The translations under genes were made by a program, and so were the position numbers. Below the pieces are notes generated by a model. That model ran no database searches, was not told where the DNA came from, and saw only the letters and a list, made by a program, of their open reading frames with translations. This document shows positions 14,145 to 49,119 of a DNA stretch of 64,000 bases, one piece after another. Source of the DNA: an uncultured virus (IMG/VR IMGVR_UViG_3300025789_000001) (lineage: Duplodnaviria; Heunggongvirae; Uroviricota; Caudoviricetes); the IMG/VR virus record IMGVR_UViG_3300025789_000001; one strand, given 5' to 3'. Within the stretch, counting starts at the first letter, position 1. Each line of letters starts with the position of its first letter.

Positions 14145-14174
14145 TAAAATAGCAGTACTCAAGGATAAAATTTG

Positions 14175-35576: not shown

Positions 35577-36005
35577 ATGAAGACAGCCAAATTTATACAA
35601 GAAATACATGATCTCTGTGATCCTCCAGCGAGAGAAGCAATCATTAAGTATGTTAAAGATGAATGGAATCTACTAGCAGAAGATTATGAGAAATACAAGG
35701 TAGATCTCTTAATTAAAAATCAATCAGGTAAATCAATTGGTTATGCTGAGTTGGAGCTGCGCAACTGGGAGTCGTGCCCGTATCCGACTATTCATATTCC
35801 ACAGCGTAAGAAAAAGTTATTTGATAACGATATGCCTACTGTCTACTTCGTAGTGAACCGCCCACTGACGATGGCATACTACATCAATACAAACAAGATC
35901 TTAGAACAACCGCTTAGAGAAATTGCCAATAAACGATTAACAGATGGTGAGTATTTTTACGATGTGCCAAAAGAAATGTTCAGCGTAATCCACTTGAAGT
36001 CTTAA
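35577..36005 (+). CDS. Putative PD-(D/E)XK-fold nuclease-like protein
   Basis: YKVDL...YAELELRNW...IHIPQRK. Confidence 0.55.
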   Translation: MKTAKFIQEIHDLCDPPAREAIIKYVKDEWNLLAEDYEKYKVDLLIKNQSGKSIGYAELELRNWESCPYPTIHIPQRKKKLFDNDMPTVYFVVNRPLTMAYYINTNKILEQPLREIANKRLTDGEYFYDVPKEMFSVIHLKS

Positions 36006-36022
36006 TCTCTTTTTGATAAAAT
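35994..36022 (+). promoter_or_regulatory. Sigma70-like promoter of the replication genes
   Basis: TTGAAG-17 nt-TAAAAT with extended TGn. Confidence 0.6.
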
Positions 36023-36033
36023 AATAGCTCCAA

Positions 36034-36042
36034 CTGCTAGGA
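36034..36042 (+). promoter_or_regulatory. CTGCTAGGA box overlapping SD
   Basis: AACTGCTAGGAGA, 7 nt before ATG 36050. Confidence 0.75.
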
Positions 36043-36049
36043 GATTTAG

Positions 36050-36319
36050 ATGGACTTTTACAACGAACAGATCGTAGAACTCACTGACACTGTAGTATCC
36101 TTAGACCAAGAATTAACATTAGCAAAAGACATCATCGCAGCCCATAGATGGGATGCTACCGAGATTGAAGTAGATTGGATTCATGACCTTGTCACCGAGC
36201 TTCGGGAACAAGTTAGGATTCAAGAAATTGAAATTGAAGCTCTCAAAGATTCCCGCAATATGTTTCAAGAAAGAAACGCAGAACTAATCCGTCAAGTAAA
36301 AGCGCTCAAGAAAAAATAA
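36050..36319 (+). CDS. Hypothetical coiled-coil protein
   Basis: Strong SD; TAATG-coupled to the helicase gene. Confidence 0.65.
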   Translation: MDFYNEQIVELTDTVVSLDQELTLAKDIIAAHRWDATEIEVDWIHDLVTELREQVRIQEIEIEALKDSRNMFQERNAELIRQVKALKKK

Positions 36320-37818
36320 TGGAGCTCTTATTACGGGAACACCAAGAAGGTGTTGTGGAGAAACTTCGTCAAGGGTTTCGAGAAGGCCATCGTTGCCAGC
36401 TTTTGTATGCACCCACTGGCTTTGGCAAAACAGAAGTAGCAATCTATTTAATGAAGGCTACGGCTGATAATTATCATAAAGCAGCGATGATTCTTGATCG
36501 TATTGTATTGATTGATCAGACCTCTAAACGCTTAGATAAATACTCGATTGCTCATGGCGTATTACAGGCTCAACATAAACGCCAAGATAAGACCAGGCGC
36601 ATTCAAATATGTTCGTCACAAACTATCGAGAGAAGAAATAACTTCCCCGATATTGATCTATTGATCGTAGACGAATGCCATATCACTCGGTCAGAAATTA
36701 CCAAGATCATCAAGAACAATGACAAGATTAAAGTCATTGGCTTGACCGCCACCCCGTTTACTAAAGGGCTAGGTTCTATCTATTCCAATGTGGTCTGTGC
36801 TTCGACAACTGAATCTTTAGTCGATGGTGAATGGCTATGTCCTCTCAAAGTCTACATCTCCAAAGAGATTGACATGGCTGGGGTCAAAAAGATTGCTGGT
36901 GAATGGAGTCCTGATCAAGTCACTGAACGGGGGATGCAGATCACTGGTGATATTGTGGCTGAATGGGCAAAGAAGACTTATGAAGTCTTTGGCAAACCCA
37001 TGAAGACTATTGTATTTTGTGCTGGTGTAAAGCATGGAGAAGATTTAGTAGAACAATTTGCCCGCAAGGGTTTTAACTTTGTCAGCATATCCTACAAGGA
37101 TAGTGGTGAATACAAACAGGAGGTAATTGATGACTTCGCTAGACTCGATACAAACATTCATGGGCTTATTGCTACTGATATTCTTACTCGTGGCTTCGAT
37201 GTTCCTGATGTATGTATTGGTATATCAGCTCGTCCTTTTAGTAAATCACTTAGCTCCCATGTTCAGCAGATGGGTCGGGTTATGCGATCTCACCCTACTA
37301 AACAGTTTGGTTTGTGGTTAGACCATTCAGGAAATTACATTCGTTTTAGAGATGACTGGGAAAGAATTTATTCTGAAGGTGTCAAGAATTTGGATGACAC
37401 TGGCGAGAAGACCAAAAGAGAACCAACAGAAAAGGAAAAGAAAGAACAGAAATGCCCAGCGTGTTCGGCACTCTGGCCTAGATCGTCTTCGTCATGTGCT
37501 TCGTGTGGCTATGTTAGACCGAAAAAGCAGATTGAGACCGTGTCAGGTGAATTAGTCGAGCTTGGCTTTGACAAAAATGCCAAGAAAGACGATAAACAAA
37601 AGTTCTATTCAGAGCTGATATACATCGCCAATGAAAAGAATTACAACATTAACTGGGCATCGCATATCTATAAACAGAAATTCGGAGTCTGGCCTCGTGG
37701 TTTACAAGAGTATCCCCGCATAGCCAGCTTAGAAACACAGAAGTATGTCAAACACAGAACCATCGCTTTTAGTAAACGCTTAAAGAAAATGAAGGTAAAC
37801 AATGCAGGAGTTCGTTAA
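36319..37818 (+). CDS. Superfamily 2 DNA helicase (SSL2/RadD-like) with C-terminal Zn finger
   Basis: APTGFGKT, DECH, GLTATP, RGFDVPD, QQMGRVMR, CPAC...CASCG. Confidence 0.92.
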   Translation: MELLLREHQEGVVEKLRQGFREGHRCQLLYAPTGFGKTEVAIYLMKATADNYHKAAMILDRIVLIDQTSKRLDKYSIAHGVLQAQHKRQDKTRRIQICSSQTIERRNNFPDIDLLIVDECHITRSEITKIIKNNDKIKVIGLTATPFTKGLGSIYSNVVCASTTESLVDGEWLCPLKVYISKEIDMAGVKKIAGEWSPDQVTERGMQITGDIVAEWAKKTYEVFGKPMKTIVFCAGVKHGEDLVEQFARKGFNFVSISYKDSGEYKQEVIDDFARLDTNIHGLIATDILTRGFDVPDVCIGISARPFSKSLSSHVQQMGRVMRSHPTKQFGLWLDHSGNYIRFRDDWERIYSEGVKNLDDTGEKTKREPTEKEKKEQKCPACSALWPRSSSSCASCGYVRPKKQIETVSGELVELGFDKNAKKDDKQKFYSELIYIANEKNYNINWASHIYKQKFGVWPRGLQEYPRIASLETQKYVKHRTIAFSKRLKKMKVNNAGVR

Positions 37819-38620
37819 TTTCGCAAGAGAACATGGCTTGATTATGAATAACAATCTTGTCATGGACAGATGGGTAGCCACCCCAACAGAAGATCATCCA
37901 AGATCCACAAACGGTAGATATAAATTCTTAGGCAATGTCGGCTGGGCTATCAACTGGGCAACAATGGATAAACCCGCCACCTGGTTTGCTGAAGGTGTCA
38001 GCAAGACCGAAATCAAAAAACAAATGTCTTCGTCAAACGATTCAAGGAAAAAAGAGGCACAGGCTGCAGCAGAAAAAGCACAGTGGATTTTGTCTCAATG
38101 CAGTTTGGAATCGCATCCATACCTTGAACGCAAGGGATTTAAAAACGAACAGGGAAATGTCTTCGTCAAAGGGCTCGACAAACTGTTAGTTATTCCCATG
38201 CGGATACAGGGCTCTGTGGTGGGATGCCAGCTCATCGACCACGAGGGGAACAAAAAGTTCTTGCATGGTCAGACGAGCAAGGGGGCAACTTTTACGATTG
38301 GGACACGAGGCACTGCAATATTCTGCGAAGGGTATGCCACTGGCCTCAGTGTCAGGGATATCATGACCAAAATGAATCTCCCTTATACGATCCACATCTG
38401 CTTCTCCGCAAACAACATGGAGCTCATAGCAAGGAACATCGGGAAGGGGCTGATTATCGCTGATAACGATAGCAGTGGTGTTGGAGAGATGGTGGCCAAA
38501 AAGACACAAAAGCCGTATTGGATCTCCCCAGCAACTGGGGAGGATTTTAATGACTACCATATGAGAGTCGGCAATTTCAAGGCTTCTCAGGATTTAAAGA
38601 GGTTGCTACTTTCCTTATAA
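37802..38620 (+). CDS. TOPRIM-domain DNA primase
   Basis: HPYLERKG, CEGYATG, IIADND, DFND. Confidence 0.85.
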   Translation: MQEFVNFAREHGLIMNNNLVMDRWVATPTEDHPRSTNGRYKFLGNVGWAINWATMDKPATWFAEGVSKTEIKKQMSSSNDSRKKEAQAAAEKAQWILSQCSLESHPYLERKGFKNEQGNVFVKGLDKLLVIPMRIQGSVVGCQLIDHEGNKKFLHGQTSKGATFTIGTRGTAIFCEGYATGLSVRDIMTKMNLPYTIHICFSANNMELIARNIGKGLIIADNDSSGVGEMVAKKTQKPYWISPATGEDFNDYHMRVGNFKASQDLKRLLLSL

Positions 38621-38927
38621 ACCTAGCTTCAATCTGCCTGATCCTTTCACGATTAAGAACAAAAGTATTACCCACTGATTGTAGCGTATGACCTTCTGCC
38701 CTCATCTTCAGGATATTCCAGTATTTTTCCCGTAGGGTTTTATTATTGGATTTAAAGAGTATGTCAAACTTCTCACGACTGGGAAAGTCCACCAGCTTGT
38801 AAGGGGCATCGCCCCCTACAAACACTGGCACTTTACCCTTGCACTTGCTTAGGTTCATCCTGTCCTTTCTCAATGATGACATAGCCTGTTTCATCAATGT
38901 AGTATTGCTGGCCTGATTCTTTGGCAC
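38577..38927 (-). CDS. Sigma70 region-4-like HTH protein
   Basis: TLQSVGNTFVLNRERIRQIEAR. Confidence 0.7.
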   Translation of the reverse strand: MPKNQASNTTLMKQAMSSLRKDRMNLSKCKGKVPVFVGGDAPYKLVDFPSREKFDILFKSNNKTLREKYWNILKMRAEGHTLQSVGNTFVLNRERIRQIEARFIRKVATSLNPEKP

Positions 38928-39290
38928 TAATCAATCTTTTCTGTTGCCATTTAGAATTGGCTTCCATCCATTGCTGGGCATCTTTATCGGCTTGATTCAT
39001 TGTTAATCTCCTTTATTTTTTCCAATGCTTCTTTCTTTGTTACAAAAACCAAGTTATCGCCAACATGATCTACATATTCATCATAATTATTTTTATCCTG
39101 AATAATCCAATAATTTTCTTGCAATTCTACTGGTCTCCAATTCATGTTGATACCTCCATCAAAAATTTATGAACAGATGCTTCAAACTCAGAAAATTCTT
39201 TCTGATCAACTTGGCAATAATCTTTTGGATTCTCGATATCAATTACCATTAAAGAATCCCCGCAAAGAACATATTCGTTGTCATCGTCCA

Positions 39291-39518
39291 TTACTCTAAC
39301 CATTTTGACCATCCTTCAGAAAAATAAATTTCACCTTTAAATTCTGCTGGGATCAAGTAACCGCTATATCCATGTTTGACCATGAAATCATCGGCATCTG
39401 TTTCGTCCATCAGCAACTGGCATTTAATTTCGTGGATGACTGCACAGGGGAATGTATCTCTTCCTTTGCAAAAGTCCCCAAACTCGATATCACCAAACAA
39501 TACTAAATTTTTAGGCAT
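39291..39518 (-). CDS. Hypothetical early protein
   Basis: ATGA/TAATG-coupled small ORF. Confidence 0.55.
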   Translation of the reverse strand: MPKNLVLFGDIEFGDFCKGRDTFPCAVIHEIKCQLLMDETDADDFMVKHGYSGYLIPAEFKGEIYFSEGWSKWLE

Positions 39519-39738
39519 GATCTAACTCCATTATTCTAAATTCATCCAATTCATACAAAGAATCAATATTGCCAGCGTTGTATTCCATGAGCTCATCCTC
39601 AAGAAATTCATTGAGGGCATCTAAGGCTTCTTTGTATGTTCTATAAATGGACGGGATCATTACCCCGTCCTCATTCTCTTCACTCCAGCAATTTATCCAT
39701 CCATCGCATAGCGTGTAATGTTGAACTTCAAACATCAA
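39511..39738 (-). CDS. Hypothetical early protein (acidic)
   Basis: FEVQHYTLCDGWINCWS; SD AGGAG. Confidence 0.65.
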   Translation of the reverse strand: MMFEVQHYTLCDGWINCWSEENEDGVMIPSIYRTYKEALDALNEFLEDELMEYNAGNIDSLYELDEFRIMELDHA

Positions 39739-39908
39739 TCTATCTCCTGATTGTCAAAAGCCCCATGATCCCCTTGCACTATTGCCAATGCTTCTGCAAT
39801 ATTGCCGATAGCTTCATCCAAATCAACCAGTGGATATTCGTCTTGCATCTCATCATTTAAAAACTTGTAAGTGTCTACAAGCAATTTTTCTACTCTTGCA
39901 ATATTCAT
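39735..39908 (-). CDS. Hypothetical early protein, 57 aa (not in ORF track)
   Basis: MNIARVEKLLVDTYKFL...; overlaps neighbours at both ends. Confidence 0.5.
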   Translation of the reverse strand: MNIARVEKLLVDTYKFLNDEMQDEYPLVDLDEAIGNIAEALAIVQGDHGAFDNQEID

Positions 39909-40090
39909 TCGATTTCCTCATCGTCATCAGTTTGTTCAACATCGTAAACAACATGGTCATATTCACCGACACAGTGAAAGTCGCACTCAGGTATGGCTTT
40001 ACCCTTTTCCCAAGCATCGGCTTCACTGTCGGCTTCTATCACCTTCTCATACATCACATTGGTCTTTGCCCTGATAATCCATTTAGGCAT
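39905..40090 (-). CDS. Hypothetical early protein
   Basis: MPKWIIRAK...IEADSEADAWEK; SD GGAGGAG. Confidence 0.55.
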   Translation of the reverse strand: MPKWIIRAKTNVMYEKVIEADSEADAWEKGKAIPECDFHCVGEYDHVVYDVEQTDDDEEIE

Positions 40091-40283
40091 GACTAAACTC
40101 CTCCAATGTAAGTGGCTCAACTTCAACAAACTCATCACCACTGTCCAAAATATCTTTCGATATATGGCTCTCTATCTTTTTTGCATATGCTTCTGCTTTT
40201 GATTCAGAATCAAATGCTATAAGGTTTGTATAGCCGTTATATGCACCATACGATTTCACGATATATATTGTTTTCATTGTCAA
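40083..40283 (-). CDS. Hypothetical early protein
   Basis: IYIVK...AFDSESKAEAY motif. Confidence 0.55.
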   Translation of the reverse strand: MTMKTIYIVKSYGAYNGYTNLIAFDSESKAEAYAKKIESHISKDILDSGDEFVEVEPLTLEEFSHA

Positions 40284-40287
40284 ATCC

Positions 40288-40734
40288 TTACCAGCTTGAC
40301 TGGTAGTAAAAGTCCCAGTTAACGGCAGACGGGTTTGTCAAAATCTCCGACAATCTGTCCCTAGTCTCAGTAATGCTCTGCCAGTAGTATTCATCCTTTT
40401 CAGTGCTGCCGAAAAAAAATCCCGATACTGGCTTAAGAATATCTTCATCACGATTTACCAATGCTTCGTTGCATAGTGCAACCAGCTCGTCCAACTGGGC
40501 AGAATCGACCCAGTATTCCCCGCAGTCATCAAGTCCCTCCTGAACATTATCGACAAACCAATTATGGATAGCGTTGCACTTTCTCCAATACATCACATCA
40601 AAGGATACCGACTTGGCATCGTAGGCCGTAACCCCCAACACCTTCGCCACATCCTTGCGTAAATGTTGCTCTTCTTCTTTGTGATTCCACAAATATTGCT
40701 TTGCGGTCAAATACATATCTAAACCCATGATCAC
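40288..40734 (-). CDS. Conserved phage early protein
   Basis: MGLDMYL...YWRKCNAIHNWFV...GFFFG...YYQSSW. Confidence 0.75.
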   Translation of the reverse strand: MIMGLDMYLTAKQYLWNHKEEEQHLRKDVAKVLGVTAYDAKSVSFDVMYWRKCNAIHNWFVDNVQEGLDDCGEYWVDSAQLDELVALCNEALVNRDEDILKPVSGFFFGSTEKDEYYWQSITETRDRLSEILTNPSAVNWDFYYQSSW

Positions 40735-40910
40735 TCCTCCTCAGTCATGTAAAACTGCCCAACACGATTACCATTGGTATCCCTGATAGTCCCCGATTTT
40801 TGCTGAGAATCAATCATATTTGAGACCAGCTCTAAATTGGCAACCAATTCGTCATACAGTGATTCTTCATACACTGCGTTATCAGTGCGTATTTCCAGTT
40901 TGAACATCAT
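40731..40910 (-). CDS. Hypothetical early protein, 59 aa, immediately downstream of hammerhead 1 (not in ORF track)
   Basis: MMFKLEIRTDNAVYEE...IRDTNGNRVG; SD AGGAG. Confidence 0.7.
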   Translation of the reverse strand: MMFKLEIRTDNAVYEESLYDELVANLELVSNMIDSQQKSGTIRDTNGNRVGQFYMTEEE

Positions 40911-40917
40911 TTCAATC

Positions 40918-40926
40918 TCCTAGCAG
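40918..40926 (-). promoter_or_regulatory. CTGCTAGGA box overlapping SD
   Basis: TTAACTGCTAGGAGA, 7 nt before ATG 40910. Confidence 0.75.
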
Positions 40927-40929
40927 TTA

Positions 40930-40980
40930 ATCAAAGACTGGATCACTCCAGTTTCGTCCTTACAGACTCATCAGTTTGAT
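40930..40980 (-). ncRNA. Type I hammerhead ribozyme (HH1)
   Basis: AUCAAA CUGAUGA GUCU-GUAA-GGAC GAAA CUGGA-GUGA-UCCAG UC^UUUGAU; full core, three stems; cut between 40936 and 40935. Confidence 0.93.
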
Positions 40981-41333
40981 AGGCACTTCTCACGCCATTT
41001 ACGGGCATTGTCATTCAATGCTGGGTAAAGCTCATCCAGCTTATGTATCAGCTTCTTTGGTGCGTTGAAGTAGTAAGGCATCATATCTTCTGTCATTTCT
41101 TTCATGACCCATTCTTTTGCAGAACACTCAAGCAATATGACCATGCCAAACCCAGTCTTAGTGCCATCGGCTTTAACGACATTCAGAATGCCGTATGCTT
41201 CCCGTCCCTTGATGCTGATATCAGTCAACTCAAAAGACGGGTTAGTGCCAATTTCACCAACTTGTTTAAATTCGTCTGCCAACCAGCGTTTTTTATCGCC
41301 ATGATAAGGCGGAGTCATTCCAGTCCATCCCAT
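40971..41333 (-). CDS. Hypothetical early protein (DUF6927-like)
   Basis: MGWT...KEMTEDMMPYYFNAP...A.KWREKC; its stop codon lies in the hammerhead core. Confidence 0.65.
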   Translation of the reverse strand: MGWTGMTPPYHGDKKRWLADEFKQVGEIGTNPSFELTDISIKGREAYGILNVVKADGTKTGFGMVILLECSAKEWVMKEMTEDMMPYYFNAPKKLIHKLDELYPALNDNARKWREKCLSN

Positions 41334-41557
41334 GTTATTGCTCCTCAGTAATGTTAAACAATGCTCTCATATGATTCTCAAGGTAATGTAATTTACTTAT
41401 CTGTTCGTCAATAAAATCACGCATATTGTCAAACTCCTGAAAACCAGCTACTGGCATCCCTTTCAAATAATTGGTTTTCCCTAAGTCCATTAGATCAAAA
41501 TACATTTCTTGAACAGTCGTATATAGGTTTGATTCAACTCCCATGTTATTGCTCCTC
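41328..41557 (-). repeat. 19-nt direct repeat flanking one small gene
   Basis: TCCCATGTTATTGCTCCTC at 41328-41346 and 41539-41557. Confidence 0.85.
41335..41544 (-). CDS. Hypothetical early protein
   Basis: SD GAGGAG; MGVESNLYTT...EEQ. Confidence 0.6.
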   Translation of the reverse strand: MGVESNLYTTVQEMYFDLMDLGKTNYLKGMPVAGFQEFDNMRDFIDEQISKLHYLENHMRALFNITEEQ

Positions 41558-41713
41558 GATTGATTCATCTACATCAGATTGTGAATAGCCCGACAAAATC
41601 TCAGGCCGATATTTGCTCAAGACTGCATCCACGCATTTATCGCAGACCCTTGCCAACGGGATACCTTGAGCATCGTATTCCCACCAGCTATCACCACTAT
41701 GTTCACAGATCAT
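41546..41713 (-). CDS. Small Cys/His-containing early protein
   Basis: MICEH...WWEYDAQGIPLARVCDKC. Confidence 0.6.
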   Translation of the reverse strand: MICEHSGDSWWEYDAQGIPLARVCDKCVDAVLSKYRPEILSGYSQSDVDESIEEQ

Positions 41714-41847
41714 ATGACTCTCCCCCATTTGAGAATTGCAGAAACTACTAACCATATGGCATAAAAGCCCGCCAATATCAGTCCGAAGGACAACAGCTCA
41801 GACCATACAACAGTCATCAACTGATACAGCTCTTTCAAAGTATCCAT
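41710..41847 (-). CDS. Small membrane protein, 45 aa (not in ORF track)
   Basis: MDTLKELYQLMTVVWSELLSFGLILAGFYAIWLVVSAILKWGRVI; SD GAGGAG. Confidence 0.55.
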   Translation of the reverse strand: MDTLKELYQLMTVVWSELLSFGLILAGFYAIWLVVSAILKWGRVI

Positions 41848-42221
41848 TATTCAAACTCCTCAGAATTAACATAAACCCCATTCTTACGAAGTAGGGCAAT
41901 CGCATGGTCATTCAATGACATGACCCCATCATATTCGACCAGACTCCGTTTGCCATCCCGATCAATGGAAAACCACAGACCAATATGCTCAAACAAGTCC
42001 AGCTCAGGAATATCCCATTCAATGAACCCAGTGCAGTCTTTGTGGTAGTAGAGCTCTAAGGTAGACTCATGAGTCCCCAAATCTCTCTGCCCCCAGCTCC
42101 CCTCCAGCATCAGAGGAGAGCTCACTGTCATGCTATCAATGAGCTCTGCCACGATCAATACTCCGAAGTCAACATAAAGACATTGTCGGCCAAGAAGAAG
42201 GTATAAATGCCCGAAGGGCAA
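41847..42221 (-). CDS. Hypothetical early protein (true start probably near 42152)
   Basis: IEWDIP...HIGLWF...L.EYDGVMSL. Confidence 0.6.
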   Translation of the reverse strand: MPFGHLYLLLGRQCLYVDFGVLIVAELIDSMTVSSPLMLEGSWGQRDLGTHESTLELYYHKDCTGFIEWDIPELDLFEHIGLWFSIDRDGKRSLVEYDGVMSLNDHAIALLRKNGVYVNSEEFE

Positions 42222-42514
42222 TCAGTCATAGCGATCTTCTTAATCTTCAAAGTATTCAAATCCCCATCATCAAAAGCAATAACGGCTTTACCATCAGCAA
42301 CTTCCATGTTGATAGACATAAAGGGATTCTTCTTATGGAGCTCATAGCCCTCAGTAGCCACGATATCCAAGAACCAGTAAGCCCCAGCAGTATCAGCAAA
42401 GTATTGAACCCCATCGGTATGAACCAGCTTCGGTGCAAACATAGGCTGAGTCCTCCAATACTGGGTAGTGCCAAAGAACTGGGTTAAATCGATTGTGTTG
42501 GTTTGTGTTTCCAA
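42155..42514 (-). CDS. DUF6876-like early protein
   Basis: LTQF.GT..YW...TDGVQYFA..AGAYWFLD...DDGD...TD.P...MLTSEY. Confidence 0.7.
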   Translation of the reverse strand: METQTNTIDLTQFFGTTQYWRTQPMFAPKLVHTDGVQYFADTAGAYWFLDIVATEGYELHKKNPFMSINMEVADGKAVIAFDDGDLNTLKIKKIAMTDCPSGIYTFFLADNVFMLTSEY

Positions 42515-42522
42515 TTTATTTC

Positions 42523-42531
42523 TCCTAGCAG
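42523..42531 (-). promoter_or_regulatory. CTGCTAGGA box overlapping SD
   Basis: TTAACTGCTAGGAGA, 8 nt before TTG 42514. Confidence 0.75.
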
Positions 42532-42543
42532 TTAATGATTACC

Positions 42544-42589
42544 GAATGGCAATCCCGATACCCCGAAGGGCATCAGGATTACAGCACTC
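42544..42589 (-). other. Long intergenic RNA hairpin (possible processing site)
   Basis: GAGUG-CU-GUAAUCCUGAUGCCC-UUCG-GGGUAUCGGGAUUGC-CAUUC: 20 bp with G-U pairs and a C(UUCG)G loop. Confidence 0.7.
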
Positions 42590-42719
42590 AAGACCGATTC
42601 AAGAACTCAGCTACCTTCAAGGCTTCGTCCATATACGCAAACAGTGCCATGATCTCTCCATTCTCATCCTCAATAGCGTATGGGAACTTAGGATCACTAC
42701 AGGCAATTACTCCAAACAT
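42588..42719 (-). CDS. Hypothetical early protein, 43 aa (not in ORF track)
   Basis: SD AAGGAG; MFGVIACSDPKFPYAIEDENGE...AEFLNRS. Confidence 0.6.
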   Translation of the reverse strand: MFGVIACSDPKFPYAIEDENGEIMALFAYMDEALKVAEFLNRS

Positions 42720-42730
42720 AATCAATCTCC

Positions 42731-42925
42731 TTAGAAAGTAAAACCAGTAAAAACAACACGATTACCCCTGATGAACTTCCCATGATTCATATCGTCAAAC
42801 TTATGAACCCAGTATTGACGGGAAGAACGGCAGTAGTAGTCGCAGACCCAAACAGGGGAAGTCTCAGTGCCTTTTAGCTTAAAGAACTCTCCCTTAGCTA
42901 TCTTCTTGAGTAGTGATGGTTGCAT
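42731..42925 (-). CDS. Hypothetical early protein, downstream of hammerhead 2
   Basis: LKK..KGEFFKL...VWV..YY.RS..Y...FDD.N...VFTGFTF. Confidence 0.7.
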   Translation of the reverse strand: MQPSLLKKIAKGEFFKLKGTETSPVWVCDYYCRSSRQYWVHKFDDMNHGKFIRGNRVVFTGFTF

Positions 42926-42932
42926 CGTTATC

Positions 42933-42941
42933 TCCTAGCAG
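42933..42941 (-). promoter_or_regulatory. CTGCTAGGA box overlapping SD
   Basis: CACTGCTAGGAGA, 7 nt before ATG 42925. Confidence 0.75.
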
Positions 42942-42945
42942 TGTT

Positions 42946-42993
42946 GTCAAAGACCCCGAAGGGTTTCGCCTATTGAAGGCTCATCAGTTTGAC
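42946..42993 (-). ncRNA. Type I hammerhead ribozyme (HH2)
   Basis: GUCAAA CUGAUGA GCCU-UCAAU-AGGC GAAA CCC-UUCG-GGG UC^UUUGAC; cut between 42952 and 42951. Confidence 0.93.
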
Positions 42994-42997
42994 TGGG

Positions 42998-43246
42998 TTA
43001 GAACTGGCAGTTATCAGACATCTCCTGACGAAGATCAATCCATTCCTGAATGGCTTTAAGCGTCTTAGCCATATCGAACTGGGATTCTGATAGATACTCA
43101 AGAATATCCCCATCCGACCATGCTTCTACTATCGCATCCCAACCTTCGTTGTATAAAGCTCCAGCGTATGCTCTTACAACTTGAATCATCTTCTCCTCAT
43201 CTATCTGCTTATCCCATATGGCGATTGTGTCTTGTAGTGTCTGCAT
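42998..43246 (-). CDS. First gene of the early operon, acidic hypothetical protein
   Basis: VRAYA...Y..GWD.IVEAWSD..I; SD AGGAG within the variant box CTACTAGGA. Confidence 0.65.
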   Translation of the reverse strand: MQTLQDTIAIWDKQIDEEKMIQVVRAYAGALYNEGWDAIVEAWSDGDILEYLSESQFDMAKTLKAIQEWIDLRQEMSDNCQF

Positions 43247-43298
43247 ATCTGCTCCTAGTAGGTGGTTTAAAAATCATTCATCTAGTGAATGAGATTAA

Positions 43299-43326
43299 AT
43301 GATAATCCAAAACACTTGACTTGCAA
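43299..43326 (-). promoter_or_regulatory. Sigma70-like promoter of the leftward early operon
   Basis: TTGCAA-16 nt-TATCAT on the minus strand; leader hairpin TCATTCA/TGAATGA. Confidence 0.6.
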
Positions 43327-43614
43327 CACTTTCTGCAAAATATTTTTAGACCCTTGCTGGATAAGGCTCTCAGGGCAGACCGCCCAGGTGATAATTGCCT
43401 TACTTGTGATGCAGTGTCCGTAAAAAAGGGAAGCAGAGCTCTGTAGCCCGCATGAGTGCCGCTAAAAGCCCGCCATAGCCGAAGGCGAACAGTGTTGATA
43501 CGGAAGAAGCAGTAAGAGATATAAGAGAGTATGTATATGCCCGTCCCCAACCATGAGATAGATAGTCTATACTTAGGGGTATTGATATACCTATGGAATA
43601 CTTAAAGCAGACCC

Positions 43615-44487
43615 ATGAAGAAGCTCACCCGTAAAGAGATCAAGGAAGGATTGAACACAGTCCCGATTGATACGATCATTCTTGGCTCTAGGAGCAAACA
43701 AACCCAGCTTACGAAGAAGGAGAAGGAGTTTGCTGAGCAACTGGTGAAGACGGGGAACAAGACTGAGGCTTATCGTAGGGCATATGATACGAAGGGTAAA
43801 GCGACTACTGCCCATCGGGATGCCCTCAAGGTGGCCAGTCGTCCCAATGTGAGCACCTACATACAGGCACTGGAAGCACAGAAAGAGGTGGAGGAATATC
43901 TTTTACCCACTCGTTTAAGGGCTCTCGCTATCCATAAGCTCTCTAGCATGGCATTAAATGATGACCTAAAGCCCACTGAGCAACTCAGGGCTCTTGAGCT
44001 GGTGGGGAAGATGACTGAGGTGGCACTGTTCACTGAGAGACGGGAGCTGGTGCATAGCGTTGACTCTGCCAGTTTGAAGGCCAAGCTCATGGATGCCGTC
44101 CAGCTTGCCATCGCTAATTCCAAATCCCTGAGAACTCAGACCAAGAGAACGGCTGAGGATCTACTCAGAGAGATACAGGATGTAGAAGCCCATGAGATAA
44201 CAGAGGTGAAGGATCAACCCAGCGATCAATCAGAACCATTGCAACTGGAATCCATCTCTGCGGATGGGGATACGGCCAGTGAAACGGCAAAAGTCGACCC
44301 CCCACCAAGTGCCACCACCCATTTTTTGGCCGAGTCCGTGGCGGGACATTTGCATAGTATTCCACACAATCAATCCCAACAGATAGGGGAGGGGGTATCA
44401 AATCCCCAGTGGGTAGAAGTGGGCACTGACTTACAAATGACCCCCATAGGTAAATCTATACAAAATGACGGGGGGGATATTTCTTGA
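43615..44487 (+). CDS. terS: Terminase small subunit (HTH) with long disordered C-terminus
   Basis: LT.KEKEFA.......N.TEAYRRAY; RALELVGK...ALFTER; upstream of TerL. Confidence 0.7.
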   Translation: MKKLTRKEIKEGLNTVPIDTIILGSRSKQTQLTKKEKEFAEQLVKTGNKTEAYRRAYDTKGKATTAHRDALKVASRPNVSTYIQALEAQKEVEEYLLPTRLRALAIHKLSSMALNDDLKPTEQLRALELVGKMTEVALFTERRELVHSVDSASLKAKLMDAVQLAIANSKSLRTQTKRTAEDLLREIQDVEAHEITEVKDQPSDQSEPLQLESISADGDTASETAKVDPPPSATTHFLAESVAGHLHSIPHNQSQQIGEGVSNPQWVEVGTDLQMTPIGKSIQNDGGDIS

Positions 44488-44644
44488 AAAAAACAATGTT
44501 AGCAAGTATTCACATACAAATCGAGGAAACAGGCGAAGTGACCATGCACACCAGTGGCGAAGACCTTGCCTTAGAGTTGGCTAATGAGATGGTCAACATG
44601 GCAATCAACGGTGGCATAGACGGGTTTATAGGTGAGGAGATTCA

Positions 44645-44875
44645 ATGTTTGCAATAGAAGACTACCCAGAGTTAGTGCAGGCTGACGGCTTAGAAGAAGC
44701 CATAGTCGGTGTAATCAACCGTTTAGGAACCCAGGCTTTATGCTATGACCTTGACAAGGTTATTAACATCCTCATGCGGGATATGAGCAAAGAAGAAGCT
44801 TGGGAGTATTTTTACTACAACATCGAAGGTTGCTATGTGGGTGAGAACACCCCTGTATATTTGACCTATCTATGA
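44645..44875 (+). CDS. Conserved hypothetical phage protein
   Basis: ADGLEEAIVG...YD..KVI..L...MS.EEA.EYF.YNIEG.YVGE.TP. Confidence 0.7.
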   Translation: MFAIEDYPELVQADGLEEAIVGVINRLGTQALCYDLDKVINILMRDMSKEEAWEYFYYNIEGCYVGENTPVYLTYL

Positions 44876-45099
44876 CACCTGTACAAAAAGAAATCTATCT
44901 AGTAATCGAAGAATGGTGGGCTAAATATGGCTTTGGACCAACTATAGACGATATTATGCACATCACTGGCGATAGGGGGCGGGGAAATGTAGCCCGCAAG
45001 ATGAGGACCTTAATTGAGCTAGGGATATGTAAAGGCGATACTAAAAGAACCAGATCTATTCGTCCCGCTTACTTGAAGTTGAGAAATATCAATGGATGA
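44872..45099 (+). CDS. LexA-N-like winged-helix DNA-binding protein
   Basis: MTP.QKEIY..I......YGFGPT..DI....G...RSIR. Confidence 0.7.
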   Translation: MTPVQKEIYLVIEEWWAKYGFGPTIDDIMHITGDRGRGNVARKMRTLIELGICKGDTKRTRSIRPAYLKLRNING

Positions 45100-46582
45100 T
45101 CTCTTAGAGATTATTAAGCTGCTTCCAGAGGATGAGCAGGCTCCACTGCTGCCGCTGGCTGCGGCTTATCAGGAGTCTTTAACCAGGGAATCAGGGCAAA
45201 TTGACTTTATGTCATTTGTCAAAACCATGTGGCCAAACTTTATTCATGGCCAACATCACGCATTAATGGCACAAAAATTCGAGGAGATAGCCAGTGGGAA
45301 AATCAAGCGACTTATCATTAATATGCCTCCTCGTCATACTAAGTCTGAGTTTGCTTCTTATTTGCTTCCTGCCTGGTTCTTAGGCAAATTCCCACAAAAG
45401 AAAATTATCCAATGTTCTAATACAGCGGAGCTTGCGGTTGGCTTTGGACGTAAAGTCCGTAACTTAGTCGATGGAGAAAACTATGCCAAAGTATTCCCTA
45501 ATGTATCTCTTAGATCGGATAGTAAAGCTGCTGGGCGTTGGAGTACTAATGCTAACGGGGAGTATTTTGCTATTGGTGTTGGCGGTACTGTTACTGGTAA
45601 AGGTGCTGATCTGCTCATTATTGATGACCCTCATTCCGAGCAAGAAGCTGCATTGGCAGCAGGGGATCCTAGCGTTTTTGATAAGGTGTACGAGTGGTAC
45701 ACTTCAGGTCCTCGCCAGCGTTTGCAGCCTGGAGGATCTATTGTAGTAGTGATGACCCGCTGGTCTAAGCGGGATTTGACGGGCAAAATTTGCCAAGCCA
45801 TGATAGATCGGGATGGGGACGAATGGGAGATCATTAGCCTTCCAGCCATCAAAAGAAACGAAAAACCACTCTGGCCTGAGTTTTGGTCTTATGACGAACT
45901 TTGTAAACTTCGCATAGAATTACCCCTAAGCAAATGGCAAGCCCAGTATCAACAAGACCCTACCAGTGAAGAAGGTGCGCTGGTCAAACGAGAATGGTGG
46001 CGGGTCTGGGAGGAAGAAAGACCGCCAGCCTGTGATTATTTAATTCAATCTTGGGATACGGCTTTTACCAAATCAGAACGGGCTGACTATTCAGCCTGCA
46101 CAACCTGGGGAGTGTTTTACCTCAATGAAGATAAACAGGATGCTAATATCATTCTATTGGATGCGTTTAAAGAGCGTATGGAGTTCCCAACGCTTAAAGA
46201 ACGAGCATATGAAATGTATAAGGACTGGCAGCCAGATTCGTTTATTGTCGAAGCTAAAGCTTCAGGTGCACCCCTTATTTTTGAATTGCGCAGGATGGGC
46301 ATTCCCGTGCAAGAGTTTACACCTACTCGTGGAAACGATAAAATATCTAGGGTTAATAGCGTATCAGACCTTTTTGCTTCTGGCAAAATCTGGGCACCCA
46401 GAAAACGATGGGCTGAAGAGGTCATCGAAGAATTAGCTGCGTTTCCCAATTCAGACCATGATGACTTGGTAGACTCAACCACACAAGCACTACTTCGTTT
46501 TAGGCGAGGTGGATTTATCACATTACAATCAGATGAACCAGACGAGCCACAAGAGTTTAGGCGCAAAAAAGGTTATTACTAA
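45092..46582 (+). CDS. terL: Terminase large subunit
   Basis: MPPRHTKS, LLIIDDP, VMTRW, QSWDTA, HDDLVDS. Confidence 0.95.
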   Translation: MDDLLEIIKLLPEDEQAPLLPLAAAYQESLTRESGQIDFMSFVKTMWPNFIHGQHHALMAQKFEEIASGKIKRLIINMPPRHTKSEFASYLLPAWFLGKFPQKKIIQCSNTAELAVGFGRKVRNLVDGENYAKVFPNVSLRSDSKAAGRWSTNANGEYFAIGVGGTVTGKGADLLIIDDPHSEQEAALAAGDPSVFDKVYEWYTSGPRQRLQPGGSIVVVMTRWSKRDLTGKICQAMIDRDGDEWEIISLPAIKRNEKPLWPEFWSYDELCKLRIELPLSKWQAQYQQDPTSEEGALVKREWWRVWEEERPPACDYLIQSWDTAFTKSERADYSACTTWGVFYLNEDKQDANIILLDAFKERMEFPTLKERAYEMYKDWQPDSFIVEAKASGAPLIFELRRMGIPVQEFTPTRGNDKISRVNSVSDLFASGKIWAPRKRWAEEVIEELAAFPNSDHDDLVDSTTQALLRFRRGGFITLQSDEPDEPQEFRRKKGYY

Positions 46583-46590
46583 GGATCCAT

Positions 46591-49119
46591 ATGTCAATTG
46601 AAAAAGCAATGTACGCAGCACCAGCGGGTTTACCCGATTTAGATGGTCCAGATGTTGAAATTGAGATTGTCGACCCAGAAGAAGTGGACCTTAAGATTGG
46701 GGACATAGAAATCCAAATGGGTGGCGATGACACAGAAGACTTTAATGCCAACTTAGCTGAGTACATTCCTGAATCCGTTTTATTACAAATTGGCAGTCAA
46801 CTCTTAGAAGACTTTCAAACTGACATTGATTCCCGTAGAGATTGGATCCAGACCTATGTCGATGGTCTAGAACTCCTAGGATTAAAAATTGAAGAACGCT
46901 CTGAGCCCTGGGAAGGGGCTTGCGGGGTCTATCACCCAGTATTAGCTGAAGCCGTAATTAAATTCCAATCAGAAACGATTATGGAAACTTTCCCAGCTGC
47001 TGGCCCAGTGAAGGGCGAAATCATAGGCAAAGAAACTCAAGACAAAAAAGATGCTTGTGAGCGTGTAGTTGATGATATGAACTACCAATTGACCGATGTC
47101 ATGCAAGAGTTCCGTCCAGAGCACGAAAGAATGCTTTGGGGCGTTGGTTTATCAGGTAACGGCTTTAAGAAAGTCTATGTAGACCCAGCTTTAGATCGCC
47201 AAGTATCGATGTATGTTCCTGCTGAAGACTTGGTTGTGCCTTATGGTTCAGCCAGTTTAGAAGCAGCAGAACGCATTACCCATGTGATGCGCAAAACTGA
47301 AAACGAACTACAACGCTTGATGTATGAGGGTTTTTACCGAGATATTAATCTTGGTTCGCCAGACAATGTGCTGGACGAGATTGAAAAGAAAATTGCGGAA
47401 AAACTGGGTTTTAGGGCAACCACAGATGACCGATTCAAAATCTTAGAAATGCACGTTCACCTTGATTTAGAAGGTTTTGAACATGAAGACAAGCACGGAA
47501 TGCCTACTGGCATCGCTTTGCCCTATGTTGTAACTATTGAAAAATCAAACGGAGCCATATTGGCTATTCGTAGAAACTGGGATCCAGATGATAAAACCTA
47601 CCAAAAGAGACAACACTTTGTACATTATGGCTATATTCCTGGCTTTGGTTTTTATCACTTTGGCCTTATCCATCTCATTGGCGCTTTCGCTAAATCGGGA
47701 ACTTCTATCCTCAGACAGTTGGTCGATGCAGGGTCATTATCGAATTTGCCTGGCGGCTTTAAGACCCGTGGGTTGCGAGTCAAGGGCGATGACACACCAA
47801 TAGCCCCAGGTGAGTTTAGGGACGTAGATGTCCCGTCTGGCACGATGAAAGATAACATCATGCCTTTGCCATACAAAGAGCCAAGCCAGACTCTCATGGC
47901 ATTACTCAATCAAATCGTAGAAGAAGGCCGTAGATTTGCTTCTAGTGGCGATTTAAAAGCTTCTGATATGTCTAGCCAGTCCCCAGTCGGTACGACTTTG
48001 GCTATTTTGGAACGCACTTTAAAAGTGATGTCGGCTATCCAAGCCCGTATTCACTTCTCCATGAAGCAAGAATTTAAGCTGTTAAAGAAAATTATTGCCG
48101 ATTACGCCCCAGAAGATTACTCTTACGAACCCTCTACAGGACACCAAGCAGCCCGCAGATCTGACTATGAGATGGTTAATATCATCCCTGTATCAGATCC
48201 AAACGCTGCAACAATGTCTCAAAAGGTAGTGCAGTATCAAGCGGCTTTGCAATTGTCGCAAACTGCACCCCAGTTGTATAACTTGCCTTATCTACACCGT
48301 CAAATGCTAGAAGTCATTGGCATTAAGAATCTGGAAAAGCTTGTTCCAATGCCAGAAGATATGACTCCTGTAGATCCTGTAACAGAGAATGTCAACGCTT
48401 TGAAACAAAAGCCGTTAAAGGCATTTATAGGTCAAGACCACCAAGCGCACATTCAAATCCACTTGGCCGCCATTAACGATCCAAAAATCAAACAAGTTAT
48501 TGGCCAAAACCCACAGGCTCCTTTGATTATGCAGACTTTGCAGGCTCATATTACTGAGCACGTTGGCATGGAGTATATGCGCCAAATGCAGCAAGCTATG
48601 GGCATTAATATCCCGTATCAGGACAATGACGATGATCAAGTTCATCTCACCCCAGATCAAGAAATGCAAATTGCTCGTCTGGCCGTACCAGCTGCTCAAA
48701 ATCTGTTGCAACAAAATCAAACAGCGGTTGCAGCGCAACAAGCCCAGCAGGCAGCGCAAGATCCAATTATTCAGATGCAGATGAAAGAATTGCAGCTTAA
48801 AGCGCAAGAAATTGACATTAAGCAGAAGAAAATTGCAATGGATGCCGCAGGCAAAGCAGACCAACTTGAAATTGAAAAGCTGCGTATTGCAGCCCAAAAA
48901 GAAATTGCTGGTATGCAAGTGGGCGCTAAGACTGCTTCTGATAAGGCCAATCTAGCTGCCAAACAAAAATTAGAAGGTATGAAATTAGGTCATCAAATTG
49001 GCAATGCCAAAGCGCAATTAAACCAGCAAAGACAGGGTCAAAAACTCCAAGTCACTGCGGATTTATATAAAACCGAGCAGCAATTAAAAAACAAATCACC
49101 AAAAAAGGAACCTAAATGA
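46591..49119 (+). CDS. Portal protein (P22-like, with Q-rich helical barrel)
   Basis: Follows TerL; PWEGACGVYHP, GFKKVY, FYHFGLIHLIG; long coiled-coil C-terminus. Confidence 0.88.
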   Translation: MSIEKAMYAAPAGLPDLDGPDVEIEIVDPEEVDLKIGDIEIQMGGDDTEDFNANLAEYIPESVLLQIGSQLLEDFQTDIDSRRDWIQTYVDGLELLGLKIEERSEPWEGACGVYHPVLAEAVIKFQSETIMETFPAAGPVKGEIIGKETQDKKDACERVVDDMNYQLTDVMQEFRPEHERMLWGVGLSGNGFKKVYVDPALDRQVSMYVPAEDLVVPYGSASLEAAERITHVMRKTENELQRLMYEGFYRDINLGSPDNVLDEIEKKIAEKLGFRATTDDRFKILEMHVHLDLEGFEHEDKHGMPTGIALPYVVTIEKSNGAILAIRRNWDPDDKTYQKRQHFVHYGYIPGFGFYHFGLIHLIGAFAKSGTSILRQLVDAGSLSNLPGGFKTRGLRVKGDDTPIAPGEFRDVDVPSGTMKDNIMPLPYKEPSQTLMALLNQIVEEGRRFASSGDLKASDMSSQSPVGTTLAILERTLKVMSAIQARIHFSMKQEFKLLKKIIADYAPEDYSYEPSTGHQAARRSDYEMVNIIPVSDPNAATMSQKVVQYQAALQLSQTAPQLYNLPYLHRQMLEVIGIKNLEKLVPMPEDMTPVDPVTENVNALKQKPLKAFIGQDHQAHIQIHLAAINDPKIKQVIGQNPQAPLIMQTLQAHITEHVGMEYMRQMQQAMGINIPYQDNDDDQVHLTPDQEMQIARLAVPAAQNLLQQNQTAVAAQQAQQAAQDPIIQMQMKELQLKAQEIDIKQKKIAMDAAGKADQLEIEKLRIAAQKEIAGMQVGAKTASDKANLAAKQKLEGMKLGHQIGNAKAQLNQQRQGQKLQVTADLYKTEQQLKNKSPKKEPK

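Follow-up and report, generated by a model that had tools for sequence, protein, structure and literature searches.

A block of small genes with two hammerhead motifs

The DNA analysed here, referred to as the window, is a 64,000-nt stretch of the IMG/VR record IMGVR_UViG_3300025789_000001 and represents the bulk of one uncultured phage genome. Between its primase and small terminase genes about 19 small open reading frames (ORFs) lie on the minus strand, from position 43246 down to 38577, and directly after the first of them there is a type I hammerhead ribozyme motif, HH2, whose nature and role are the subject of this work (Table 1). A second type I copy, HH1, was found 2013 nt away, on the same strand as the ORFs of the block. 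Almost none of these ORFs showed a family match; a DUF6876 gene (42514-42155) did, and so did a gene for a Sigma70_r4-like protein with which the block ends. The 82-aa gene upstream of HH2 was without a match in PHROG or Pfam, no PHROG or Pfam family was matched by the 64-aa gene downstream of it, and the gene that follows the HH1 leader encodes a 59-aa protein corresponding to phrog_9027.

In HH2 a stem I of 6 bp is followed by CUGAUGA, a stem II of 4 bp with a 5-nt loop, GAA, stem III and C17, and the 3' strand of stem I completes the motif. Stem III consists of the A15.1-U16.1 pair and three G-C pairs under a UUCG loop. The minimum free energy (MFE) folds of HH2 and of HH1 both had the hammerhead topology, with stem I open and stems II and III closed by loops, that is, the type I arrangement. 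Both copies carry the core set out for hammerheads in the methods of Perreault et al. 2011 (C3 U4 G5 A6 N7 G8 A9, G12 A13 A14, and an H17 that is not G). No mispair stands beside the core of HH2, where N1.1-N2.1 is A-U, N10.1-N11.1 is G-C and A15.1-U16.1 is A-U, and the two motifs form a cluster like the gene-flanking hammerheads of phages and prophages, with several copies on the coding strand in intergenic gaps within one gene block.

The initial annotation, made from the letters alone, had read the same hammerhead on the minus strand from 42993 to 42946, and our reading agreed with it letter by letter. It had placed HH2 directly after the first early gene, which holds for the first gene of the minus-strand small-gene block, and its 26-nt leader before the ATG at 42925 is correct for a cut at 42952/42951. 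Its comparison of the two copies was also confirmed: HH1 and HH2 are identical in the core and in the five inner pairs of stem I, the outer pair being A-U in HH1 and G-C in HH2, and their stems II and III differ in sequence yet remain paired. Within the leader of HH2 the stem I 3' strand is present together with a conserved tail of the AAC type, and the Shine-Dalgarno sequence CUAGGAG is found from 42938. In HH1 the core CUGAUGA itself contains the UGA stop codon (40973-40971) of the upstream 120-aa gene.

Table 1. Features of the window and of related loci (L numbers) considered in this work
Feature	Position	Strand	Description or basis
Hammerhead HH2, type I	42946..42993	minus	sequence read; R1 67.8 bits, E 4.8e-18
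HH2 stem I	42993-42988 with 42951-46	minus	sequence
HH2 core CUGAUGA	42987-81	minus	sequence
HH2 stem II hairpin	42980-68	minus	sequence
HH2 GAA	42967-65	minus	sequence
HH2 stem III hairpin	42964-53	minus	sequence
HH2 C17	42952	minus	predicted cut between 42952 and 42951 (GUC site)
HH2 leader, 26 nt	42926..42951	minus	predicted to remain on the downstream mRNA
Upstream gene, 82 aa	42998..43246	minus	first ORF of the minus-strand block; TAA stop 4 nt before HH2
Downstream gene, 64 aa	42731..42925	minus	ATG 20 nt past the HH2 end
Hammerhead HH1, second type I copy	40930..40980	minus	R1 40.3 bits, E 1.2e-9
HH1 C17	40936	minus	predicted cut between 40936 and 40935
HH1 leader, 25 nt	40911..40935	minus	same UAACUGCUAGGAG motif, then ATG 40910
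Conserved long hairpin	42537..42595	minus	25 pairs in the MFE fold; leader to 42515, same UAACUGCUAGGAG motif
Sigma70-like site	43299..43326	minus	TTGCAA, 16 nt, TATCAT; 9/12 matches; upstream of the first gene
TTGACA-type promoter-like leader sites	L013 ~2130, L016 ~1949, L017 ~1044, L032 ~1109, L043 ~1367, L070 ~1973, L072 ~2214		boxes and small hairpin
Helicase and primase	36319-38620		PHROG match
Terminase subunits	43615-46582	plus	PHROG match
Portal	46591-49119		PHROG match

Relatives of HH2 and covariation of its stems

A scan of viral contigs with a pattern that fixed the core and, in stem I, the four inner pairs returned 87 loci with 44 distinct cores, and the same pattern gave 0 matches in prokaryotes (596 Gb, one genome each of 185,579 species). 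A covariance model, R1, was built from 16 sequences, with the copies of the window excluded. Applied to the window with filters off, R1 recognised only HH2 and HH1 at E <0.1; a third hammerhead was discarded, as the next best match reached only 13.5 bits (E 0.18). Over the window and the 87 loci the model found 169 sites in 88 sources; many of these sites have a different stem I sequence, and it is common for a contig to hold two or three on one strand. Five related records that were searched whole contained 1-3 copies each.

Members were also found in two cultured phages, Flavobacterium phage vB_FspP_elemoE_6-9C (54.4 bits) and Pelagibacter phage Jormungand (48.6 bits, with a GUA cleavage triplet). 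The GenBank record of the former (MT497072) lists, on the strand opposite to the hammerhead and directly overlying it, a 35-aa 'hypothetical protein' (L088 5967-6074, corresponding to 16289-16396 of the record); this annotation is probably a spurious call.

The covariation analysis covered the best 150 of the 169 R1 matches, which represent 70 distinct sequences. Among the latter, 99.8% of 1039 cells form standard pairs, both-sided (compensatory) changes were observed at 12 of the 15 pairs, and G10.1-C11.1 and A15.1-U16.1 are invariant in all 70. The covariation score was reached by none of 500 shuffles, and when the pairing partners were slid, pairing fell to 31-45%. The initial annotation had argued for selection on structure from the covariation between the two copies of the window; this covariation is real, and the 70 distinct relatives extend it.

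A hairpin that works uncut could also be selected for its structure, for example if it bound a protein or acted as a weak terminator or attenuator. Cleavage at this locus is predicted from sequence, and in HH1 stem III is followed by UCUUUGAU, which was flagged as terminator-like. However, the U run is just three long, the terminator scan returned 6 sites against a shuffle mean of 5.0, and a hairpin role leaves unexplained the invariance of CUGAUGA, GAAA, A15.1-U16.1 and the non-G at position 17 among the 70 distinct relatives. We regard this alternative as very improbable.

To evaluate the possibility of a functionless chance match, the window was shuffled 2000 times with a first-order Markov model. 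Short-stemmed motifs resembling hammerheads are indeed produced by chance, 742 of them (0.37 per window) being present in the shuffled windows at minimum stems of 3/3/3, and the Rfam scores are under threshold. In contrast, a scan of both strands of the window for type I hammerheads returned 2 motifs in all, HH2 and HH1, both on the minus strand and both with stems of 6/4/4 or better, whereas stems of at least 6/4/4 appeared only 3 times in the 2000 shuffled windows, and 0 times when A15.1-U16.1 and G10.1-C11.1 were also present. Together with the 87 viral loci against 0 prokaryote genomes, the covariation and the 0 substitutions in a relative that has diverged by 6% (see below), the comparative data in our judgement refute a chance match, to which we assign next to no probability.

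Taken together, these data describe a subfamily with a nearly fixed A/U-rich stem I of 6 bp, an AAC tail and a shared leader, which is found in viral contigs only and falls below the Rfam thresholds.

Conservation of the ribozymes among changing neighbours

Locus L076 is 93.8% identical to the window (278 differences in 4501 aligned nt) and showed 0 differences in the 138 nt that comprise HH2, HH1 and both leaders. Likewise, L039 (89.9% identical, 150 differences in 1489 nt) had 0 differences in HH2 and its leader. In more distant relatives the ribozyme-plus-leader blocks, of ~65-75 nt, align at 79-94%, and the flanking genes align at 65-75% or are unalignable. L009 and L010 have a common ribozyme and upstream gene, and differ downstream. 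Compared with L036, the window has two additional genes, which form a module with a copy of the leader motif at each end. L003 is 99.98% identical to the window, and its match begins exactly at the 5' edge of HH2 (window 42994); nucleotides 1-148 of L003, at the start of the contig, were without a match in the window from 38000 to 44000. Either the break is a mosaic junction that coincides with the edge of the ribozyme, or it is an end effect of the assembly.

These arrangements, in which identical ribozymes join differing neighbours (L009/L010, the L003 edge and the L036 module) and in which often only the cassettes still align in diverged relatives, raise the alternative that the ribozyme-plus-leader cassette (~70 nt) is kept chiefly as a module linker for recombination, its cleavage being secondary or incidental. 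This seems unlikely to us, since recombination needs identity and not structure. Here stems II and III vary freely while their pairing is kept, as the compensatory changes indicate, and the invariant positions are exactly the catalytic ones. It should be pointed out that a linking function and cleavage are compatible with each other.

An apparent tandem duplication of ~69 nt was observed in L018, a near-identical relative in which the two ribozymes are 2082 nt apart, compared with 2013 nt in the window. Two blastn pieces at L018 ~2683-2821 reuse one stretch of the window (42942-42873), where the leader and the beginning of the gene for the 64-aa protein are located.

Position of the ribozymes at gene boundaries

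The genetic surroundings were analysed in 81 distinct contexts with at least 200 nt on each side of the ribozyme. A same-strand ORF of at least 40 codons stops at -14 to +10 of the ribozyme start in 66 of them, and in 77 a start codon (ORF of at least 35 codons) is located 4-30 nt after the ribozyme, most commonly at 19-22 nt. Both the stop before and the start after were present in 63 of the 81; of 20000 positions drawn at random from the same loci, 3.6% had both.

The sequence that follows stem I is also characteristic: in 67 contexts the tail starts with AAAC, UAAC, AACU or AACA, and in 44 CUAGGAG is found within 30 nt. One A in loop II and two A's in this tail are conserved at 90% or above. 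In the Rfam alignment the AAC tail of HH2 aligns with UAC at internal-loop positions of the consensus of Hammerhead_HH9 (RF02275), and the tail is thus a candidate partner for a tertiary contact, as is the A of loop II. Within the block of the window CUAGGAG occurs at four places only: 43258, ahead of the first gene, and 42938, 42528 and 40923, which follow HH2, the long hairpin and HH1, respectively.

Where an upstream ORF of at least 40 codons exists, its stop codon lies at -6 to +10 of the ribozyme start in 62 of 74 contexts, and in 19 contexts, HH1 included, this ORF ends on the UGA inside CUGAUGA. Such proximity might indicate a gated switch, in which stem I and the core are masked by ribosomes that are completing translation of the upstream gene, cleavage thereby reporting upstream translation. 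The long hairpin described below, found in the same slot, also has a stop codon in its 5' foot and two near-isoenergetic folds, in agreement with this idea. Nevertheless, tight gene packing alone puts stops beside any intergenic element, the stop inside the core is explained by the fact that any reading frame entering CUGAUGA must terminate there, and an alternative, inactive hammerhead fold was not found when HH2 and HH1 were folded. A gate of this kind is, in our opinion, as doubtful as the linker.

A shared leader preceded by different elements

The leader CUGCUAGGAG is not exclusive to hammerheads. It was found at 73 distinct sites in the window and in loci L001-L089, and the content upstream of it varies: 43 sites are preceded by a hammerhead recognised by a regular expression, and three of the other 30 coincide with R1 matches (L006 4749-4842, L056 3495-3585 and L029 4912-4963). 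A further site, near 4636 of L016, is preceded by a sequence of hammerhead-like appearance that is outside the R1 list. As for the rest, 11 have the long hairpin, 7 have -35 and -10 boxes of the TTGACA type together with a small hairpin, and 8 have other sequences. The L029 match (R1 60 bits) has CCGAUGA replacing CUGAUGA (U4C) and may represent an inactive or variant core in the usual slot.

In the window, the long hairpin comes after the stop codon of a 45-aa ORF and precedes the DUF6876 gene, which starts at 42514. In L036, L006 and L056 a hammerhead precedes the homologue of the DUF6876 gene instead of this hairpin. The segment 42586..42535 was considered as a hammerhead that lacks stem II, and turned out to belong to this separate conserved hairpin element. 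A scan for the conserved 3' half of the hairpin returned 76 viral loci with 44 distinct sequences; 6 loci were dropped as coding-sequence look-alikes and 36 distinct sequences were kept. The MFE fold was one long hairpin of 20-29 pairs in 32 of the 36 and two adjacent hairpins in the other 4, with a mean energy of -27.7 kcal/mol, compared with -24.2 kcal/mol for a forced two-hairpin fold, and a mean z of -5.2 versus mononucleotide shuffles. Inspection of the 36 sequences by eye indicated that the different sequence classes preserve both folds. The upstream stop codon falls within the 5' foot of the hairpin. Compensatory changes were seen at no pair in an alignment of 4 sequences, and the comparison with Rfam returned nothing meaningful, the best match being freshwater-2 (13 bits, E 8.5). 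This hairpin may be a site for a double-stranded RNA (dsRNA) nuclease or a switch.

The promoter-like sequences hint at transcription of the small-gene block by a host sigma70-type polymerase. In the window, the sigma70-like site upstream of the first gene is a candidate for the start of the transcript carrying both ribozymes; it resembles the 7 sites of the relatives as a weaker match, and it is a weak site, as the scan that identified it gave fewer sites in the window than in shuffles.

On the basis of these arrangements we tentatively propose, as an idea that may well prove wrong, that in this group of aquatic phages the standard leader with its CUGCUAGGAG end is served by three interchangeable makers of 5' ends, namely a sigma70-like promoter, a type I hammerhead and a bistable hairpin of ~20-29 pairs. 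If this were true, the hammerhead would be a natural, portable insulator of cistrons, allowing small-gene modules to be swapped between phages with their expression unchanged, and the long hairpin would be an undescribed RNA element, acting as a site for a host dsRNA nuclease or as a translation-sensing switch.

The leader motif AACUGCUAGGAG is also present on the plus strand, at 36032-36052, before an ORF with its ATG at 36050; the sequence upstream of this copy contained no recognisable ribozyme, hairpin or promoter-like site. A hammerhead-like remnant noticed by eye on the same strand, at ~35930-36010, has a broken core and is without an R1 match, and was taken as a coincidence.

Genome context

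Besides the genes listed in Table 1, virion proteins were likewise recognised in the window by PHROG matches. The nearest cultured relatives of its large terminase are those of phage 023Pt_psg01 and Pelagibacter phage HTVC027P (~59% identity), and a megablast of the window from 39000 to 45000 against cultured phages was without a match. The DNA of the window was contained in 24 sequencing runs, all of them freshwater DNA metagenomes. No ribozyme or other Rfam family was found in the window at gathering level, and apart from Hammerhead_HH9 the matches with E up to 5 were at chance level only (sR3, Mahella-1 and anti-hemB). A 3755-aa ORF occupies window positions 14172-25439 on the plus strand, following a putative ejection protein; its sole family match is a DNA methyltransferase-like region at residues ~970-1100 (phrog_3820, E 1e-9), and it may encode a giant virion protein or an injected protein.

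Proposed role in the processing of a phage operon mRNA

HH2 is almost certainly a hammerhead RNA maintained by selection, and it would very probably cleave in infected cells. The motif, its conservation, its covariation and its position at gene boundaries favour a hammerhead function, and it is likely that HH2 and HH1 are active type I ribozymes that split the operon mRNA of the small-gene block between genes. We assign a somewhat lower, still favourable, probability to mRNA processing or insulation being their main role.

According to this model, both ribozymes would lie within one transcript of the minus-strand block. Once the polymerase had made the 48 nt of HH2, the three helices would form, and the RNA would cut itself after C17 (42952/42951) by internal transesterification. 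The upstream message would be left with the stem II and stem III hairpins and a 2',3'-cyclic phosphate at its end; the downstream message would begin with a 5'-OH and a fixed 26-nt leader with a strong ribosome-binding site. A stem I of 6 bp rich in A and U would let the products separate. In this way a long transcript could be divided at gene or module boundaries without a host nuclease, each unit gaining its own ends and a standard leader, so that stability and translation would be uncoupled between units. The ORFs between the leader-headed points of the block abut or overlap, and the block would resemble a series of translation units, each headed by a CUAGGAG leader. The predicted cut site and end groups follow from established hammerhead chemistry; we infer the activity in the cell and the effects on mRNA stability and translation.

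The initial annotation had proposed this host-independent processing of a polycistronic phage message, which is consistent with the position of HH2 at a gene boundary and had been put forward as a hypothesis for phage hammerheads (PMC3088659, PMC6765202). It had further compared the cut with the processing of T7 early mRNA by RNase III, and in this analogy the 3' hairpins and the cyclic phosphate that the upstream mRNA would carry are at least as close a counterpart as the 5'-OH end. That the block is early we infer from two observations, its position and the sigma70-like site at 43326..43299. Altogether, the interpretation given in that annotation is partly supported.

Several observations weigh against the proposed processing. 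In the first place, the folding energies of HH2 and HH1 were no better than those of shuffles (z -1.28 and -1.06, respectively), and searches with the Rfam hammerhead families (RF00163, RF00008, RF02275, RF02276 and RF02277) gave 0 matches at gathering level in the window and 0 in the loci of 20 relatives (109,999 bases). For HH2 the best Rfam match was to Hammerhead_HH9, which has a gathering threshold of 52 bits; the score obtained was 21.6 bits (E 0.9 when the whole window was searched, 0.0084 when the search was limited to 601 nt). HH1 was not reported by the search of the window at E up to 5. These results show that the standard Rfam thresholds miss short type I phage hammerheads. The alignment used for covariation was fitted to the model R1. 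In addition, many of the sequences had been collected with a pattern that set the core, together with four inner pairs of stem I, in advance, so that the invariance of these parts is partly by design; this applies to the core positions, which do not vary among the 44 sequences of alignment A1.

Fast cleavage of hammerheads at low Mg2+ needs a tertiary contact between stem I and stem II. A supported contact of this kind was not found in the HH2 family, nor was a complement for a pseudoknot seen. An extended stem I, formed by the 5' flank and the tail and hiding the ribosome-binding site, was tested in 76 pairs of flanks (12-nt flank, 22-nt tail) and rejected, as the duplex energy was -2.67 kcal/mol both for native and for permuted pairs and 49.5% of 200 permutations were as good or better. 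Moreover, ribosomes that terminate at the upstream stop codon, which precedes HH2 by 4 nt and in HH1 falls within the core, might interfere with folding. The initial annotation had suggested that the 5'-OH end may stabilise the downstream mRNA; any such benefit would depend on the RNases of the host, and the argument would be valid only for hosts in which decay begins by sensing a 5'-monophosphate. Finally, there were no RNA runs among the 24 listed runs containing DNA of the window.

The presence of two ribozymes 2013 nt apart on the same strand also suggests another outcome, namely that they free an RNA of ~2 kb that is circularised by a host ligase, or whose ends serve another role at the RNA level or against host defence. 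The ends of hammerhead products can be joined by RtcB-type ligases, and would suit such a fate. On the other hand, related records hold 1 to 3 ribozymes, so that a pair is not required, and spliced or circular products of clustered bacterial hammerheads were sought and none were found in the experiments described in PMC3088659. We consider the release of such an RNA as improbable as a hairpin that works uncut, and processing of the operon mRNA is the interpretation we prefer.

Comparison with known systems

Hammerheads in phages and prophages have been described before. In prophages, individual genes or short runs of genes are flanked by multiple hammerheads (Perreault et al. 2011, PMC3088659); that study describes the cleavage in vitro of native transcripts of ~2 kb and the cleavage of an Agrobacterium fragment in E. 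coli, and proposes that processing converts long phage transcripts into mRNAs of gene length. A review from 2019 repeats the idea of polycistronic processing and states that more work is needed, the cellular role of bacterial and phage hammerheads being still to be settled (PMC6765202). Type I hammerheads are the usual ones in bacteria and bacteriophages, according to a 2026 publication (PMC13725137). Both HH2 and its interpretation as a processing element belong to this known kind, of which HH2 alone is an ordinary example.

A published report of the HH2-type subfamily was not found in the literature searched; members may be listed in the supplementary alignments of PMC3088659 (Dataset S1). 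The value of the family lies in the comparisons that it allows: it offers dozens of variants at strictly defined gene boundaries with a common leader, and among relatives the same gene may have a ribozyme, a hairpin or a promoter-like site in front of it. As two cultured phage-host pairs (elemoE and Jormungand) carry members, cleavage and the fate of the mRNA are directly testable.

The clustered hammerheads of phages and prophages (PMC3088659) have the same core as HH2 and HH1, the same location between same-strand genes with several copies per transcript, and the same proposed role. In contrast, the ones tested in that work come from prophages of cultured bacteria and are often of type II with a pseudoknot, whereas HH2 and HH1 are of type I and their subfamily is found in freshwater and marine contigs of uncultured, lytic-type phages, with a nearly fixed stem I, an AAC tail and a leader with a Shine-Dalgarno sequence. 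HHphage, the hammerhead of haloviruses HF1 and HF2, resembles HH2 in lying shortly upstream of a start codon (13 nt), in its case that of a gene in the early region of a lytic virus, and a transcript 5' end was mapped within 3 nt of its cleavage site (PMC3088659). It differs in having core insertions and in belonging to an archaeal virus; the HH2 family has a standard core and is placed mostly 19-22 nt before the start codon.

With respect to the Rfam families, Hammerhead_HH9 (clan CL00010) has the same architecture, with an open stem I of 6 bp and closed stems II and III, but HH2 matches only positions 13-63 of the 77 of the model, and the outer part of stem I of HH9 is absent in HH2. HH9 is an intronic element of amniotes.

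In T7, RNase III cuts the early mRNA between cistrons, leaving a 3' hairpin on the upstream message and a defined leader on the downstream one. The outcome proposed for HH2 would be similar, with the difference that T7 needs a host enzyme and a hammerhead needs none, and HH2 is outside that family of sites. The ends also differ, those of T7 being a 5'-phosphate and a 3'-OH, and those predicted for HH2 a 5'-OH and a cyclic phosphate. RiboJ, an engineered insulator obtained from a plant satellite RNA ribozyme, trims the upstream RNA and gives genes a uniform leader. It likewise places a hammerhead just upstream of a ribosome-binding site, an arrangement that in the case of HH2 is natural and conserved.

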